From Candidatus Margulisiibacteriota bacterium (GTDB taxonomy: Bacteria; Margulisbacteria; WOR-1; O2-12-FULL-45-9; XYB2-FULL-48-7), in contig JBAZZV010000010.1 of assembly GCA_041658645.1 (NCBI GenBank), positions 1 to 57,870 on the forward strand: a stretch of DNA of 57,870 nucleotides, written 5' to 3'. Below are positions 32,134 to 50,368 of the stretch, piece by piece. Position numbers and translations under genes: made by a program. Position 1 is the first letter of the stretch. Every line of letters starts with the position of its first letter. The notes beneath the pieces were generated by a model, which was not told where the DNA came from, searched no databases, and worked only from the letters and a program-made list of their open reading frames with translations.

Positions 32134-32214
32134 GTTTTAATTGTACCGCAGTTGAAAATGATGGTAAAGGGTTAGGCTGGTAGCCGCTGGCAGCCGGCGG
32201 ACGGCGCCGTCTTT

Positions 32215-32967
32215 CTATTTATTACATATTTCATCTACACGTTTAGTAAACCCAAGGTAAGCAATCCTTGTCTTTCGACCTAGCTCAATAATTTCACCAG
32301 ACAACTTTCCTGATTTCGCATCATATTCAGAAATAGCGACTACATCTAGGTAATTTACAAGCTTGGCAATAAAAGAGTTGAAAAGAGGAAGAGGATTAAC
32401 CTCCTTAGTTTCCTCGAGTGGTATTTTATTCTGTCCAAGTTGCTGCCTGGCCCGGAATAAATTGTTACGAGCCTTGATAAAATAAATAAGCGCGGAAGCA
32501 GTCTCACTATCATCCAATAGCCTTGTCGCGCTCTCTATGTTTTTTGCGCTTTCAAGAAAAAGCGAATAGCTGCCTTCCAGCTCAACTTTGGCTTCTATCA
32601 ATAATTTTTTCCTGTTCCCGACAAGCCTTCCTAAGTGTTTGGCCCTGCCATTCAATTGGTTGTATTTTAAGGCTAAAGCAACGTTATCCAGGGAAGACTT
32701 GTATTGGCTATTATTATAAGCAGTTACGGCGTAATGATAATAAATTCTACTTAATTTTAAGTTCGCGTTTTTAAGATATTTGGTTTCTTTTGTTTGCCGC
32801 AGAATAAATTGATATTTGTTTTTGGCCTCCTCATATTTTTGTTTTTCTAATAAACTATCGGCTTCCTTGCTGATTAAGGCCTGATCGCCACGGAAAGCCA
32901 AGAGAACAAACAAAACACTCAGCATAAAAAGCAAGATGCTTACTGGGCTTAATAATCCTCTGCCCAT
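32215..32967 (-). CDS. hypothetical membrane-anchored protein (low-GC island begins here)
   Basis: N-terminal TM helix followed by a K/E/N-rich domain. An AGGAAAGG RBS precedes the Met at 32967. Confidence 0.4.
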   Translation of the reverse strand: MGRGLLSPVSILLFMLSVLFVLLAFRGDQALISKEADSLLEKQKYEEAKNKYQFILRQTKETKYLKNANLKLSRIYYHYAVTAYNNSQYKSSLDNVALALKYNQLNGRAKHLGRLVGNRKKLLIEAKVELEGSYSLFLESAKNIESATRLLDDSETASALIYFIKARNNLFRARQQLGQNKIPLEETKEVNPLPLFNSFIAKLVNYLDVVAISEYDAKSGKLSGEIIELGRKTRIAYLGFTKRVDEICNK

Positions 32968-32991
32968 TTGTCCGCCTTTCCTTTTCATCTT

Positions 32992-33477
32992 TTATTGAGA
33001 ATATTTTCCCAGGGCGACGCTTGAATCAATTAACTTTCTAGCCTGTTTTGACGAGAAGCAAACGGATCCCTTTCCGTTTTTACGGGTTTTCTTTCTCGGC
33101 TTCCCTTTTATAATTTTAGGAGGGTCGCTTTTTATTTTAAGAGAGGACATGGTGTTTAGGGCCCCTTTATATTTTTTTACATCCAGGGAATGATTTTTAG
33201 AATTTTCGCTGGTCAGAAACGAACAATGAGGATTCATGGTTGGCCAGTATCTATACCCTTTTACGGCAACAAATGCCGCAAGAAGAGCCAAAAGCCATCT
33301 CACGAGCATAAAATCAACTGTATCTTTGTTCATAGCAGGTCCCCTAGCTAAGATATTGGATAGGTCCGGTTTGGCCTGAAACCTGGGAGGCAAAACAAAA
33401 GGAGATAAAAGACAAACCACTGTAATTGCCAGAAAGAGCAGGGTTAAACTCTGGTATAATTTATCCGGTAATTTCAT
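32992..33477 (-). CDS. hypothetical membrane protein
   Basis: Two predicted TM segments and a basic C-terminus. Confidence 0.35.
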   Translation of the reverse strand: MKLPDKLYQSLTLLFLAITVVCLLSPFVLPPRFQAKPDLSNILARGPAMNKDTVDFMLVRWLLALLAAFVAVKGYRYWPTMNPHCSFLTSENSKNHSLDVKKYKGALNTMSSLKIKSDPPKIIKGKPRKKTRKNGKGSVCFSSKQARKLIDSSVALGKYSQ

Positions 33478-33563
33478 TATTATCTTGCCCGGGCCGTCCC
33501 GACGTTACGCCTGCCTGTCGGCAGACAGGTCGGGACAACCCAAGCCGAAAAAGCAACGAGGCT

Positions 33564-34229
33564 TTATTCCTCACCAAAAAACTTATCCAGAAAATTAGCC
33601 GCCCTGTCTTTTGCCCCAAGGCCAAAAGCAATGGCAAAGGCCAATCCCACGGCGCCAACTATTATGTTAACTGAAGTTGTAAGCCACTCCAGGGGAACCC
33701 CAAGTTGCCCCAAAGCCGCTAGGGCCGCAAAGATAATAATGGCAGACTGTACGACATTCGCTAAAACATTGGCGTTGGTAAGACCAATATTATTGGCAAT
33801 AACCAGCATTACCGCAGAAAGTAAAAGCGCGACAAAGATGCCTACGCCTAAAACATAGGCGGCTGACAAAGCCGCCGGCAGATAGGCCAGGAGTCCTCCC
33901 AGCAAAGCTTTCGCCGAAGCTAATCCTAAGATACTGGCGACTGCGGTTACTGTCACGAAAATAGTTAGCCAATAAACTAACTCTCCCAAAAGTTCCGTTG
34001 GTCCCTTTTTAAGGCCGCCTTTGGTTAAGAACTCCGTAAAACCAATTTGTTTGCTTCCTTTGTTAAGTCGCAGGACTCCCAGGGCGGTGATTACCAACCA
34101 CTGCGAACCTTTAGCGATCAGAAGACCGATAAGCAACAAGATCAACGCATATAACAAACTTAAAAGCAGCGGCCCTACAGTCAACAAGGTATCCCTAATT
34201 GGTCTTAAAAAAATTAATAATAAATCCAT
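33564..34229 (-). CDS. multi-pass membrane protein with repeated conserved-TM-helix segments (MscS-N-terminal-like)
   Basis: Repeated hydrophobic helices (ILGLASAKALLGGLLAYLPAALSAAYVLGVGIFVALLL...). Confidence 0.45.
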   Translation of the reverse strand: MDLLLIFLRPIRDTLLTVGPLLLSLLYALILLLIGLLIAKGSQWLVITALGVLRLNKGSKQIGFTEFLTKGGLKKGPTELLGELVYWLTIFVTVTAVASILGLASAKALLGGLLAYLPAALSAAYVLGVGIFVALLLSAVMLVIANNIGLTNANVLANVVQSAIIIFAALAALGQLGVPLEWLTTSVNIIVGAVGLAFAIAFGLGAKDRAANFLDKFFGEE

Positions 34230-34274
34230 AGTTTCCCCCCATTTTTACGTCATTCGCCCCTCGTTTCCCAGGCC

Positions 34275-34454
34275 TCACCTCCTGTTCCTTGATTTCCATT
34301 GCCATAAAGCGGTTAAAACAGCCCATCCAAATTTAAATGGCCCAAAAAGATATACTCCCCGATCTTTTTCAAGCACTTCGTGCCTTCCCCCCTGAAACCG
34401 GGAAAAATATAACTCAAGATACTTTCCAAACCTTGATTCTTCTTTTTCCGCCAT
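34275..34454 (-). CDS. possible small ORF (MAEKEESRFGKYLELYFSRFQGGRHEVLEKDRGVYLFGPFKFGWAVLTALWQWKSRNRR)
   Basis: Hand-translated ~59-aa ORF with an AGGAGG RBS. Not in the ORF track. Confidence 0.25.
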   Translation of the reverse strand: MAEKEESRFGKYLELYFSRFQGGRHEVLEKDRGVYLFGPFKFGWAVLTALWQWKSRNRR

Positions 34455-34468
34455 AATAAGCCTCCTAA

Positions 34469-49040: not shown

Positions 49041-49134
49041 TTCTACCTCCGATTATTTTAAGAAAGATTCCTGGTGCAGAATGCCTTATTCCGGGATTCC
49101 TCAGCAAGAATCGTTCCCATAAGTTTCAAGAAAC

Positions 49135-49344
49135 TTACGCTGCTGCGGTTGCCGTGAGGCCTACTGCTTCAGCATATTTCAAGAATGTCTCAACACCGGC
49201 GACCACAACTCTGGCTTCAATCGCCAGAAGCTCGATCCCGACTAAGGATATCCTTACCCACGCGTCAATCACGATGCCCTTATCGAGAATGCGATCGATG
49301 ACTTCTACCAAGCTGGAACTTCCAATTGCTTTTTCAACTGCCAT
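49135..49344 (-). CDS. gvpA: gas vesicle structural protein GvpA
   Basis: [64 protein letters not shown] is near-identical to canonical GvpA. AAAGGAGGTGA RBS. Confidence 0.95.
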
Positions 49345-49375
49345 GTTTTTTCACCTCCTTTTGTTTATAATATAA

Positions 49376-49405
49376 TGTAGGGCAAGGGCTTATCCCTTGC
49401 CGAAC
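49376..49405. repeat. single hairpin element of the same family upstream of gvpA
   Basis: tgtagGGCAAGGGcttatCCCTTGCCgaac. On the minus strand the hairpin is followed by CTACATTATATTATAAA, ~40 nt before the gvpA RBS. Confidence 0.5.
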
Positions 49406-49642
49406 TCCCTTAATCAATAATCATCATAAATTTGGGATTCTGTTTCTTTTATGGCTGTTTTTAACAGGCCAAGAATGCCTAAAAGTTTCCGCAACCACTT
49501 AAACATTCTCATTTTCCAATTTCCGGGTTGATTTTATAGTCATAAATAAAGAAAAAACCAAGGCTGTATAAAGGCATACCTTAGCTTTTCCGAAAAATTA
49601 AGTTTGGTGAAGCTCGCGGAAATCCGCGAATTTTTATTTTCC

Positions 49643-49691
49643 GTGTGTGTGTGTGTGTGGGGGGGGGGGGGGGGGGGGGGGGGGGGGGGGG
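49643..49691. repeat. (GT)8 microsatellite followed by a ~33-nt poly-G homopolymer
   Basis: gtgtgtgtgtgtgtgt then ~33 G, read directly from the sequence. Confidence 0.9.
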
Positions 49692-49951
49692 CAGACTATT
49701 TAATCTATCACTCATCATTATGATGAGATCACTCATCGGTAATTGTGTGTTCATTTTTTTACTTCTCTTTCCTTCCGAGCTTCCACCTCCGCACTCTAAG
49801 CGGACAGGTCGAAGAGCCAGGCAGTAATTTACATTACTACTAAGGAAGTATATGGCATTTAGCCCATTTGTCAAGTTGTTTTTGACCTATGGGCTATTCT
49901 TCTCTTATACCCAATTGGCTTAGACTGTAAGCCTGGAAGGAGGAATAATAA

Positions 49952-50368
49952 ATGGCAATTTTAAACGGCCTTGGCAAAAAGATCAAAATGCTAAGAAACG
50001 CAAGGGGCTTGACCCAGGAAGATTTAGATGGGCTTACTGGGCTACATTATACATTTATTGCTAAAATTGAAGCCGGGAAGAAACAACCTAGTTTAAAAAG
50101 CCTGGCAAAAATAGCTAAAGCGTTAGGCATCTCCCTTTCGCGGCTTTTTGAAGAAAAACAAAAGGTTCCTATCAAACCCCCGCTAAATAAATTAATAAAG
50201 ATTCTTGAAGATAGGGATCCAAAAGAAGTAAATCTTATTATCGAATTGGCAGAAACTATTTTTTCTAAAGCAGACAAGCTATTAAAACAAAAAGGGTCAC
50301 GACAAAAGTCGGGGGGGGGGGGGGGGGGGGGGGGGGGGATCAGGTTAAGGTATAATGGAAAGGAATGA
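49952..50368 (+). CDS. XRE-family (Cro/C1-type) HTH transcriptional regulator. The 3' end runs through the poly-G tract
   Basis: LRNARGLTQEDLDGLTGLHYTFIAKIEAGKKQPSLKSLAKIAKALGISL. The C-terminal SGGGGGGGGG is encoded by the G-tract, so the true C-terminus is uncertain. GGAGGA RBS. Confidence 0.55.
   Translation: MAILNGLGKKIKMLRNARGLTQEDLDGLTGLHYTFIAKIEAGKKQPSLKSLAKIAKALGISLSRLFEEKQKVPIKPPLNKLIKILEDRDPKEVNLIIELAETIFSKADKLLKQKGSRQKSGGGGGGGGGIRLRYNGKE
50311..50338. repeat. ~28-nt poly-G homopolymer at the island/core boundary
   Basis: Read directly from the sequence. Immediately precedes the rlmD start. Confidence 0.9.

Follow-up and report, generated by a model that had tools for sequence, protein, structure and literature searches.

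An 18.2-kb gas-vesicle gene island inserted between mutL and rlmD of a Candidatus Margulisiibacteriota genome, with a volactin-family actin-like protein and a chaperone module among its genes

An inserted island between mutL and rlmD

The window (the whole stretch of DNA analysed here, 57,870 nucleotides of contig JBAZZV010000010.1) contains a cluster of gas-vesicle (gvp) genes on an island of low G+C content (GC), located between the host genes mutL and rlmD (Table 1). We conclude with high confidence that the island is a real insertion and was acquired horizontally. The full explanation, to which we assign a probability of about 80%, is that 18.2 kb of foreign DNA with a complete gvp operon and a divergent XRE-family regulator entered the divergent promoter spacer of 24 bp that separates mutL from rlmD in a host with 56% GC. 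The donor would have had a GC of ~42–45%. The host is a metagenome-assembled genome (MAG) of Candidatus Margulisiibacteriota, as judged from the names that NCBI gives to identical proteins such as MutL, and all named MutL homologs are from Margulisiibacteriota, Saganbacteria or WOR-1. Margulisiibacteriota is a phylum sister to Cyanobacteria.

The GC of the island is 0.440, whereas the left and right flanks have 0.555 and 0.563, respectively. In 1-kb sliding windows the GC is 0.53–0.61 over most of the window, and drops to 0.39–0.49 at ~32.0–50.5 kb. The tetranucleotide frequencies of the island correlate with those of the flanks with a Pearson r of 0.38, compared to 0.94–0.97 when 5-kb flank windows are compared with the pooled flank. 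At third codon positions the mean GC (GC3) is 0.44 for 27 island genes (range 0.30–0.53), against 0.60–0.75 for six flank genes (mutL, topA, panC, rlmD and two more from the right flank). A first-pass annotation, made from the sequence without database searches, had described an island of ~18 kb with low GC between GC-rich flanks, bounded by mutL and rlmD and almost entirely on the minus strand, and had proposed sliding-window GC and tetranucleotide analysis as a check. The measurements above bear this out. The start codon of mutL is at 32131–32133 (minus strand) and the ATG of rlmD is at 50365, both genes being identified by Pfam and by NCBI names, and the divergent XRE regulator is the sole island gene that is not on the minus strand.

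The gvp clusters of other hosts have a GC similar to that of their own flanks (cluster and flank 0.436 and 0.408 in L003, 0.398 and 0.408 in L004, 0.425 and 0.426 in L013, where labels of this type denote other loci examined). It is concluded that the low GC of the window island reflects the composition of the donor, rather than being a property of gvp genes.

Relatives in which the site could be inspected were found from members of the 90%-identity cluster of the window TopA and from MutL homologs. A MutL search of genome contigs yielded one relative at 56% identity (L006) and distant Calothrix matches, and was uninformative for this comparison. In L015 the gene order is that of the window (thrS, infC, rplT, ..., panC, topA, mutL), but rlmD adjoins mutL divergently, with a gap of only 24 bp between the start codons (GGTTATATTATATAATAAGAAACG). 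Nucleotide identity between L015 and the window is 85.7% over 22178–32118, 82.6% in rlmD and 80.4% in the next gene, and at the protein level it is 86.7% for MutL, 86.3% for RlmD, 94.5% for TopA and 90.7% for PanC. In L105 (MutL 74% identical) rlmD and mutL are likewise adjacent, and the spacer is near-identical to that of L015. The empty site in these two relatives identifies the island as an insertion. Gvp genes are also absent beside mutL in L106 (MutL 66%), where the order is aroA-4HBT-mutL, and in L006, which has an aminotransferase-like gene at the site. Thus the direct adjacency that the first-pass annotation had suggested looking for is found in L015 and L105, its proposal of horizontal acquisition is supported by the empty sites as well as by the break in composition, and the cluster is not shared by all close relatives at this locus.

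The last 22 nt before the rlmD ATG in the window are a remnant of the ancestral spacer (GGTTAAGGTATAATGGAAAGGA), so that the foreign DNA must lie between the mutL start codon and this remnant. A run of 28 G residues (G28) forms the extreme right edge of the insert. The closest cluster found elsewhere is in L013/L014, with 83–85% nucleotide identity and an actin-like protein that is 88% identical. In L013 it is located in a setting of 42.6% GC and is not beside mutL; the adjacent genes encode a PAS histidine kinase, an Hsp20 and a response regulator.

The junction between mutL and the island is seen by alignment at 99.8–100% identity in two further contigs, L001 (46,995 bp) and L019 (35,529 bp), and is also spanned by L018 (18,402 bp), as calculated by coordinate arithmetic from its recorded range. 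All three come from other sample accessions. The junction between the island and rlmD is weaker, which counts against the proposed insertion: it is bridged by the window contig only, through G28, while L018 ends inside G28 and L001 ends at ~50314 (again by coordinate arithmetic). The sequence past G28 is rlmD, which is the neighbour of mutL in relatives, preceded by the spacer remnant. Two contigs from other samples with a 100% identical left flank, L016 and L017, stop at 32058 and 32097, respectively, within the first 25 codons of mutL, which suggests that those populations contain more than one allele at this junction, either island-bearing and empty ones or ones that differ in the 5′ end of mutL.

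It is very improbable that the locus carried the gvp cluster ancestrally and that the relatives lost it by precise deletion, its low GC being due to constraint on gvp genes. A second and different gvp cluster does lie upstream of a mutL 5′ fragment in an apparent relative, L082, so that linkage of gvp genes to mutL recurs. However, the cluster is absent from relatives whose MutL is 87, 74 and 66% identical, two of which keep the same 24-bp spacer, and the low GC3 is matched by the non-gvp cargo and the regulator, which are equally AT-rich (GC 0.41), while gvp clusters elsewhere follow the GC of their hosts. Moreover, the actin-like protein of L082 is only 68.6% identical to that of the window, as distant as those from other phyla (68–71%), whereas host genes are 86–95% identical, and this discordance between island and flanks refutes an ancestral cluster. 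Least probable of all is a chimeric contig, in which an assembly or binning artefact joined an island from another organism through the poly-G: two-colour Illumina chemistry yields poly-G artefacts, two other island contigs end at or in G28, and contigs with identical flanks end near the left junction, but that junction recurs in L001, L019 and L018, the first G tract of the island is internal to three contigs, and a random mis-join would not lead into an exactly syntenic rlmD with its spacer remnant.

Route of entry

No integrase or transposase was found in the island in scans with Pfam, NCBIfam and PHROGs, and the high coding density leaves no room for one. A tRNA scan found no tRNA gene in the window, and hence no tRNA-targeted integration, and a repeat search found no terminal direct or inverted repeats of the island. 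An 18-nt inverted repeat between mutL (32016–32033) and gvpA (49283–49300) was judged to be a coincidence within coding sequence.

The N-terminus of MutL in the window is MANQSIKILPEDL, compared to M(V/G)ENRI(K/Q)VLP(D/E)EL in L015, L105 and L082. Seven of the first 13 residues (32095–32133) differ from these three, and residues 14–45 are identical to those of L015 and L105. The difference fits either replacement of the 5′ end during entry of the island or ordinary variability of the N-terminus.

L082 carries a gvp island that is different from that of the window (69% nucleotide identity in the genes, with the actin-like protein at about the distance of clusters from other phyla). It is followed (L082:15979–19904) by a 120-aa open reading frame (ORF), a 60-nt fragment of the mutL 5′ end (MSANIRVLPEDLVNKIAAGE), a histidine-kinase remnant, a DUF4143 ATPase gene, an AbiEi/AbiEii pair and, last, the beginning of a real mutL. 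A stretch of 41 nt in the fragment is 95% identical to window 32071–32111, and the intact mutL start (MGENRIKVLPDELINKIAA) resembles that of L015. The occurrence of a mutL 5′ fragment beside a different gvp island implies that the mutL 5′ region is a recurrent landing site, and it looks like an insertion hotspot with target duplication.

Of the routes considered, we favour recombination that used the conserved mutL 5′ end as its anchor and was completed by an illegitimate join next to rlmD. Such a route would fit the altered codons 1–13 of mutL as well as the poly-G at the other junction, but it is doubtful, since it is deduced from 13 codons and N-termini vary anyway. In addition, ILPEDLINK is the commonest MutL N-terminus in the phylum. 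As a result, the 'LPEDL' motif is weakened as a mark of island origin, although the contrast with the closest relatives remains.

We consider it unlikely, and more so than entry by mutL-anchored recombination, that the island is a site-specific integrative element which targets the mutL 5′ end and supplies a replacement for it, the recombinase acting in trans or having been lost. The arrangement in L082, where the island, the 60-nt mutL fragment, a 3.4-kb element with the DUF4143 ATPase and AbiEi/Eii, and the intact mutL start follow each other, resembles tandem integration with target duplication. The first 13 codons of mutL in the window are unlike those of relatives and resemble the island-linked L082 fragment, and a single site has been used by two very different gvp islands. 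However, there is no integrase in either island or in the small L082 element, no mutL fragment or direct repeat is present at the rlmD end of the window island, the ILPEDLINK terminus is common as noted above, and the L082 contig includes no more than 59 nt of the real mutL.

Like known horizontally acquired genomic islands, among them those formed by homology-facilitated illegitimate recombination, the island shows an abrupt shift in GC, GC3 and tetranucleotide frequencies, an empty site in relatives and a cargo that forms a complete adaptive operon. It differs from them in having no integrase, tRNA target or flanking direct repeats, in being inserted within a 24-bp divergent promoter spacer, and in having a homopolymer at one junction. 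The window and the empty sites of L015 and L105 therefore provide a clean natural example of island acquisition without a recombinase, in which the genes for a whole buoyancy organelle entered the promoter spacer of a housekeeping locus.

Gas-vesicle core genes

Gas vesicles are a model of protein-only organelle assembly, and have been engineered as acoustic reporter genes. In the literature searched, the coverage of which was incomplete, there was no relevant description of gas vesicles in Margulisbacteria. Judged by its gene content (Table 1), the island probably encodes a functional gas-vesicle system. Genes for GvpA, GvpN, four GvpF/L paralogs, GvpG, GvpK and Hsp20 had been listed in the first-pass annotation and are all recovered by Pfam, with GvpN named by NCBI. 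Its gvpO corresponds to a match of 22.5 bits, which is below the Pfam cut-off of 25 bits. Rather than three further GvpA-family genes of J/M/S type there are two, and tblastn with all three GvpA-family proteins found no fourth copy. The two proteins described as GvpC-like have no GvpC match in Pfam or NCBIfam. They are paralogs of each other (BLASTP E 1e-16) with internal repeats (z scores of 14.5 for the 218-aa and 7.6 for the 251-aa protein, compared to shuffled sequences), so that the term GvpC-like expresses an analogy in where they lie and how they are built, with homology undetected. The sub-threshold GvpO and a GvpC-like role assigned from position and repeats only are the weak points in the case for a working system.

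Based on the established roles of Gvp families, GvpA would polymerise into the gas-permeable, water-excluding shell, which would be stiffened externally by the two repeat-rich helical paralogs in the manner of GvpC. GvpN, the four GvpF/L proteins, GvpG, GvpK, the GvpO-like protein and the two GvpJ/S-type paralogs would nucleate and grow the vesicle, and the net function would be buoyancy.

The cluster can be compared with the canonical ones of Halobacterium salinarum (gvpACNO/DEFGHIJKLM), Anabaena flos-aquae (gvpA-C-N-J-K-F-G-V-W), Bacillus megaterium (gvpAPQBRNFGLSKJTU) and Serratia sp. ATCC 39006. It shares with them the core of GvpA, GvpN, GvpF/L, GvpG, GvpJ/M/S-type proteins, GvpK and a sub-threshold GvpO, the Hsp20/GvpH-like gene, and an order in which gvpA comes first and is followed by a repeat protein and gvpN. 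It differs in that GvpC, GvpD/E, GvpV/W, GvpR/T/U and Gvr regulators are not detectable, and in the presence of genes for a CDC48-type ATPase, a fusion of GvpF to a J-domain, two DnaJ-type zinc-finger proteins, a volactin-family actin-like protein with a winged helix-turn-helix (wHTH) partner, a double zinc ribbon and an MscS-like protein. These additional genes, and the divergent XRE regulator, were missing from the earlier inventory.

A volactin-family actin-like protein and its partner

The actin-like protein matches the Pfam Volactin family over its full length (305.3 bits, against a cut-off of 35). It has a lysine-rich disordered tail at residues 1–36. Its AlphaFold2 model (mean predicted local distance difference test score, pLDDT, 72.7; predicted template-modelling score 0.73) has the actin/Hsp70 fold, and a Foldseek search of the PDB with this model gives MreB as the best match (template-modelling score 0.5–0.6), together with PilM, EutJ, MamK, ParM, crenactin and Hsp70 nucleotide-binding domains. 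Sequence searches of the PDB with the actin-like protein and with its partner gave nothing significant. The motifs DIGT, SFGGG and SGGT are invariant in 30 homologs (D44, G46, T47, G212–G214 and G315–T317).

The gene directly upstream encodes a 173-aa protein, which we refer to as the partner. It is separated from the actin gene by 3 nt in the window and overlaps it by 4 nt in L002 and L004; in four lineages the stop codon of the partner overlaps or abuts the start codon of the actin. The AlphaFold2 model of the partner consists of a winged helix (pLDDT 80–90), a helix at residues 76–94, a charged disordered linker of ~65 residues, and a C-terminal helix. The alignment reveals a conserved C-terminal motif, IKIKTSFIPPIELEE.KMESNIEKV. 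Foldseek matches of the fold are weak (E ~1e-3), and are to MarR-type wHTH proteins, the centromere-binding protein AspA and Sso10a. The arrangement resembles that of filament–adaptor pairs such as ParM/ParR.

The founding member of the family, volactin (HVO_2015) of Haloferax volcanii, forms dynamic ParM-like filaments and acts in the transition of the cell from rod to disk shape (PMC10869688). By analogy, the volactin-family ATPase of the island and its co-translated putative winged-helix adaptor would form ATP-driven filaments that organise, space or segregate vesicles, in parallel to MamK for magnetosomes and ParM with ParR for plasmids. We propose such vesicle-organising filaments tentatively. 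It is in the same way possible, though not favoured, that actin and adaptor constitute a dedicated gas-vesicle cytoskeleton, comparable to MamK/MamJ or ParM/ParR, which would assemble, align, space or partition the vesicles. It would be at the core of an extended gvp cluster type (with CDC48, the GvpF–J-domain fusion and DnaJ-type zinc-finger chaperones) that has spread by horizontal transfer among Margulisiibacteriota, Nitrospirota, Planctomycetota (Scalindua), Omnitrophota and other uncultured lineages, and the hypervariable poly-G/GT tracts of the gvpA leader and regulator could in addition switch buoyancy by phase variation.

Several observations count against filaments. The phosphate-2 motif of the actin-like protein reads SFGGG, where ParM, MreB and Hsp70 have Asp before the phosphate-2 glycines. 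Foldseek also matches relatives that do not polymerise (PilM, EutJ and the Hsp70 nucleotide-binding domain), and the adjacent J-domain and zinc-finger genes could mean a role as a chaperone instead. The alternative is that the actin-like protein is a non-polymerising ATPase similar to Hsp70 or EutJ, which folds or delivers Gvp subunits in concert with the J-domain, zinc-finger, Hsp20 and CDC48 proteins, and that its winged-helix neighbour is a transcription regulator. In support of this, the gene is in a chaperone-rich operon beside the GvpF–J-domain fusion, EutJ is itself an actin-fold protein from a microcompartment operon, and two homologs of the partner have been labelled 'predicted transcriptional regulator' by the Joint Genome Institute. 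This alternative appears rather less likely than filaments. No other family match comes close to that with Volactin, the founding member of which assembles into dynamic filaments (PMC10869688), and the best structural matches are to MreB, with MamK and ParM also high. There is no Hsp70 substrate-binding domain in the actin-like protein. J-domains normally need that domain. The very slow evolution of the protein (68–71% identity across lineages) is typical of proteins that form polymers, and the partner, linked to it by the overlap of start and stop codons, has a disordered linker and a conserved C-terminal motif as filament adaptors do.

The proposed vesicle-organising filaments may be compared with three known systems. 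Volactin of H. volcanii is similar in its full-length family match and actin fold, but the archaeal protein acts in cell shape, whereas the bacterial clade is almost always found in gvp operons with a dedicated wHTH partner. The window protein is 42–44% identical to homologs on haloarchaeal plasmids. Gvp genes are not nearby in either of the two plasmids examined, and the Halogeometricum homolog is near rdfA and an SMC-like gene, which agrees with the published role of volactin in cell shape. The magnetosome island with MamK is also a case of an actin-like ATPase within an organelle gene cluster on a horizontally mobile island, and MamK is among the structural matches. However, the actin of the window belongs to another subfamily, its organelle would be protein-shelled rather than membrane-bound, there are no homologs of MamJ or MamY, and its function is deduced only. 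The type II partition system ParMRC has an actin-like ATPase beside a small adaptor with an N-terminal fold of DNA-binding type and a C-terminal tail, an arrangement that the actin and its putative adaptor may share. The wHTH of the partner weakly resembles AspA, and the dynamics of volactin have been described as ParM-like. Unlike ParMRC, the adaptor precedes the actin and is in a gvp operon, its wHTH is not a ribbon-helix-helix, and the cargo would be a protein organelle and not DNA. A repeat search of the island found no centromere-like iterated repeat array beside the two genes.

An extended cluster type in several phyla

More than 1,700 volactin-like homologs were found in the protein collection, of which the best 120 are 66–89% identical to the window protein. 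Named hosts include Candidatus Scalindua rubra and MAGs of Omnitrophica, Nitrospirae and Saganbacteria. The common gene order begins with Hsp20, in some cases ArsA/ParA, CDC48, the GvpF–DnaJ fusion, sometimes a further GvpF, the ~175-aa partner-like protein, actin, GvpF and GvpG, and continues with an optional zinc ribbon, GvpO, GvpF, a GvpA paralog, GvpK, a ~87-aa protein, a second GvpA paralog and a ~230-aa protein. This extended architecture is syntenic in lineages of four phyla.

A metagenome scan gave 80 loci with actins that are 65–88% identical, and linkage was counted in those with enough flanking sequence. Of the 64 loci where the flank spans at least 1.5 kb, 61 have a core gvp gene near the actin; in the remaining three, Hsp20/CDC48 (two loci) or the partner gene (a single locus) was seen instead. 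Detection rates were 61/67 loci for the partner gene, 26/30 for cdc48 and 49/53 for the downstream gvpF. The actin of the window is 68–71% identical to its counterparts in the Saganbacteria, Nitrospirae and Scalindua clusters, CDC48 67–70% and GvpN 60–77%, compared to 27–53% for the GvpF paralogs and 29–32% for the partner. Thus the actin evolves as slowly as GvpN and CDC48. Given that it has been conserved while the GvpF paralogs and the partner diverged, this indicates strong constraint and not only recent transfer.

In an all-against-all library the family comprises 380 clusters (50% identity) at E up to 1e-30. A member that is 48% identical to the window protein is still beside a GvpF–DnaJ fusion, and one that is 46% identical lies among many small ORFs without gvp genes. 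The contig of the latter (L104) is full of ORFs of 40–150 aa, also has an Hsp20 gene, and looks like a virus or plasmid. In the wider volactin-like family there are also proteins of 700–750 aa with two actin-like stretches (P0160, P0164 and P0175), apparently tandem fusions, and many members have long N-terminal extensions.

The gvp core genes and the horizontal transfer of gvp clusters are well known, and the presence of Hsp20 and ArsA-type ATPases in gvp clusters was noted in 2010 (PMC2963123). The paper on Scalindua rubra reports "11 gas vesicle synthesis proteins" and does not mention the accessory genes. In the literature searched (coverage incomplete) there was no description that links an actin-like protein, volactin, MreB or CDC48 to gas vesicles. 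What appears to be new here is the conserved pair of actin and putative adaptor in gvp clusters together with the CDC48, J-domain and zinc-finger module, which define a widespread cluster type, undescribed in the literature searched.

There is thus a large class of gvp clusters, of broad phylogenetic range, that carries an actin-like protein as slow-evolving as GvpN, with a putative adaptor, as well as a proteostasis module of CDC48, J-domain and zinc-finger proteins. This bears on how cells chaperone GvpA, arrange their vesicles and pass them on, and gives the archaeal volactin family a second and very different genomic context. If filaments do handle the vesicles, they would be a further example of an actin cytoskeleton dedicated to a prokaryotic organelle, and would offer new parts for engineering the number and placement of vesicles.

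Chaperone module and other island genes

The genes for CDC48, the GvpF–J-domain fusion, the two zinc-finger proteins and Hsp20 fall within 40974–47557, and this proteostasis module is kept in related clusters. The fusion of GvpF to a J-domain is found also in L002, L003, L004, L013 and L103. Together, Hsp20, the CDC48 unfoldase, the zinc-finger proteins and the J-domain of GvpF, which would recruit the Hsp70 of the host, would keep the highly hydrophobic GvpA-family subunits competent for assembly.

The gene for the MscS-like protein is the last conserved gene in clusters of the Margulisiibacteriota type. It is conceivable that the protein is tied to turgor, which collapses gas vesicles. Several island proteins have no family match (Table 1), and scans with NCBIfam and PHROGs found no function or mobility genes among them. 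Of the two cargo proteins next to mutL, the 161-aa protein has a homolog in the loci examined (51% identical, located after the L013 cluster), unlike the 257-aa protein.

Two intergenic sequences form paired hairpins and are copies of each other with the halves in swapped order, each just upstream of an AAA+ gene (cdc48 and gvpN). Nothing in the island matched Rfam at E up to 0.1, and the hairpins and the gvpA leader are thus not known RNA families. A 'TCCGCCTTTGGCGGA' repeat family was rejected as an element, three of its four copies being within coding sequence for AKGG(K/R) peptides.

The gvpA regulatory region and the poly-G tracts

The divergent region between gvpA and the XRE gene contains a strong promoter-like site on the gvpA strand, TTGACA-16-TATACT (49874–49847, minus strand, 11/12 positions matched), which would place the (GT)n-G33 tract within the gvpA leader. 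Over its 415 nt upstream of gvpA, L082 shares 82% identity with the window, though the genes are ~69% identical. Some 130–200 nt of non-coding sequence upstream of gvpA (49345–49560; L082:200–415; L021:180–383) are kept in three divergent clusters, and include ...TGGTTGCGGAAACTTTTAGGCATTCTTGG... and ...AAAGAAACAGAATC..AATTTATGATGATTATTGA.... In L021 and L003 there is an apparent small ORF further upstream.

Both of the poly-G tracts placed at the right edge by the first-pass annotation exist. The first lies between identical flanks in four loci, as G33 in the window, G27 in L019, G10AG6 (17 nt) in L018 and C11 in the same strand sense in L082; L019 and L018 are 99.8–99.9% identical to the window despite the difference in tract length. 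The second, G28, is within the 3′ end of the XRE gene, where it encodes poly-Gly. In the Saganbacteria cluster L003 a G18 run (974–991) is similarly located at the 3′ end of an HTH_3-HisKA gene upstream of gvpA. Only six G or C runs of at least 11 nt occur in 1.0 Mb of fetched loci, and four of the six are beside gvpA or in the neighbouring regulator, although three of these four are the window island's own tracts in other assemblies.

The tracts appear to be genuine, hypervariable and connected with the regulation of gvpA, and a role in phase variation is plausible. With a long simple-sequence tract that varies in length between contigs, the gvpA leader resembles phase-variable contingency loci. 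That they are sequencing or assembly noise without biological meaning would be understandable for runs of 28–33 nt, which exceed what Illumina resolves well and at which contigs break, but we think it quite improbable in view of the recurrence of the first tract between identical unique flanks in three island contigs and L082 (33, 27, 17 and 11 nt), the G18 in the equivalent regulator of a Saganbacteria MAG, and the concentration of long G/C runs at gvpA and its regulator, counted with the overlap just given.

Table 1. Features of the island and its flanking genes (positions in the window)
Feature	Coordinates	Strand	Evidence and remarks
mutL, left flank, host gene	30508–32133	-	Pfam MutL_C, DNA_mis_repair, HATPase_c_3; MutL by NCBI name
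Inserted low-GC island	32134–50342		18.2 kb; GC 0.440, tetranucleotide r 0.38; absent from L015, L105
Cargo proteins without family match, 257 aa and 161 aa	32215–32988 and 32992–33477	-	No Pfam, NCBIfam or PHROGs match
MscS-like membrane protein, 221 aa	33564–34229	-	NCBIfam mechanosensitive ion channel E 1.4e-12, below cut-off; 68–78% identical in L003, L013, L082
Conserved protein without family match, 230 aa	34469–35161	-	45% identical in Saganbacteria and Nitrospirae clusters, 81% in L013
Basic protein without family match, 107 aa	35294–35617	-	L013 homolog 75%, L082 weak (34%, E 3e-6), none in L002–L004
GvpA-family paralog, 98 aa, GvpJ-like	35635–35931	-	Pfam Gas_vesicle E 1.1e-17
Conserved protein without family match, 86 aa	35951–36211	-	35–39% identical, same position in L003, L004
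gvpK	36222–36578	-	Pfam GvpK E 1.4e-33
GvpA-family paralog, 67 aa, GvpS/M-like	36580–36783	-	Pfam Gas_vesicle E 1.6e-16
GvpF/L paralog 4	36780–37562	-	Pfam GvpL_GvpF E 6e-54
GvpO-like protein	37584–37889	-	Pfam GvpO E 1.1e-4, 22.5 bits (cut-off 25); same-position proteins in L002, L004 called GvpO
Double zinc-ribbon protein, 64 aa	37855–38049	-	Pfam DZR E 8.4e-11; also in L002, L013
gvpG	38221–38466	-	Pfam GvpG E 7.7e-17
GvpF/L paralog 3	38567–39301	-	Pfam GvpL_GvpF E 2.6e-56
Volactin-family actin-like ATPase, 369 aa	39298–40407	-	Pfam Volactin (PF25216) E 7.7e-91, 305.3 bits (cut-off 35), profile 3–321 of 321
Partner of actin-like protein, 173 aa	40411–40932	-	No family match; wHTH, helix, linker, C-terminal motif and helix
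GvpF/L paralog 2 with C-terminal J-domain	40974–41969	-	Pfam GvpL_GvpF E 1.3e-49, DnaJ E 1.8e-13; HPD motif (LHPDKN)
CDC48-type double-ring AAA+ ATPase	41966–44200	-	Pfam CDC48_N, CDC48_2, two AAA, AAA_lid_3; NCBI start probably 44143
Paired-hairpin intergenic repeat, copy 1	44152–44217		Upstream of cdc48; direct repeat families D11, D14, inverted repeats I1–I3
Hsp20/GvpH-like small heat-shock protein	44217–44750	-	Pfam HSP20 E 4.8e-8; faint GvpH match on L004 ortholog
GvpF/L paralog 1	44747–45496	-	Pfam GvpL_GvpF E 2.5e-61
DnaJ-type CXXCXGXG zinc-finger protein, 125 aa	45489–45866	-	Pfam DnaJ_CXXCXGXG E 2.4e-11
Protein without family match, 117 aa	45868–46221	-	No significant match; 32–44% identical in L003, L004
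gvpN (AAA+)	46218–47150	-	Pfam AAA_5 E 2.1e-17; GvpN by NCBI name; 75–77% identical in L003, L004
Paired-hairpin intergenic repeat, copy 2	47165–47235		Upstream of gvpN; 30 nt 100% and 33 nt 94% identical to copy 1
DnaJ-type CXXCXGXG zinc-finger protein, 106 aa	47237–47557	-	Pfam DnaJ_CXXCXGXG E 4.5e-9
Paralogous repeat-containing helical proteins, 218 aa and 251 aa	47573–48229 and 48285–49040	-	GvpC position, repeat architecture
gvpA, major shell protein	49135–49344	-	Pfam Gas_vesicle (PF00741) E 6.7e-17, 61.8 bits (cut-off 25); GvpA by NCBI name
Divergent regulatory region gvpA/XRE, 607 bp	49345–49951		Conserved leader, GATGAGTGAT direct repeats, promoter-like site
(GT)n-G33 tract, length-polymorphic	49643–49691 (G33 49659–49691)	+	GT repeat precedes G33
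XRE-family helix-turn-helix regulator, 138 aa, divergent from gvpA	49952–50368	+	Pfam HTH_3 E 3.5e-15; PHROGs transcriptional regulators
G28 tract, right edge of insert	50311–50338	+	Two other island contigs end in or next to tract
Remnant of ancestral 24-bp rlmD-mutL spacer	50343–50364		GGTTAAGGTATAATGGAAAGGA in window, GGTTATATTATATAATAAGAAACG in L015, near-identical spacer in L105
rlmD, right flank, host gene	50365–51618	+	Pfam tRNA_U5-meth_tr; RlmD by NCBI name; 86.3% identical to L015 gene abutting mutL

Other observations in the window and its relatives

A 4HBT thioesterase gene adjoins aroA in L015 (964–1356) and L106 and has no homolog in the window (compare 51598–51620), which implies a further small insertion or deletion between the genomes. 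A second, small low-GC patch is located at 3400–5270 (GC 0.39–0.46) and includes a gene similar to ORF6N/anti-repressor genes (3674–4216, minus strand; PHROGs E 2e-24). The gene is followed by ~1 kb without an ORF of at least 90 aa, and the patch may be the remnant of another mobile element. The region 17500–19000, with a moderately low GC of 0.47–0.49, contains a 175-aa hypothetical gene and an ORF of 356 aa, which is identical to an L016 gene with Pfam matches to Peptidase_M29 (faint) and NicX.

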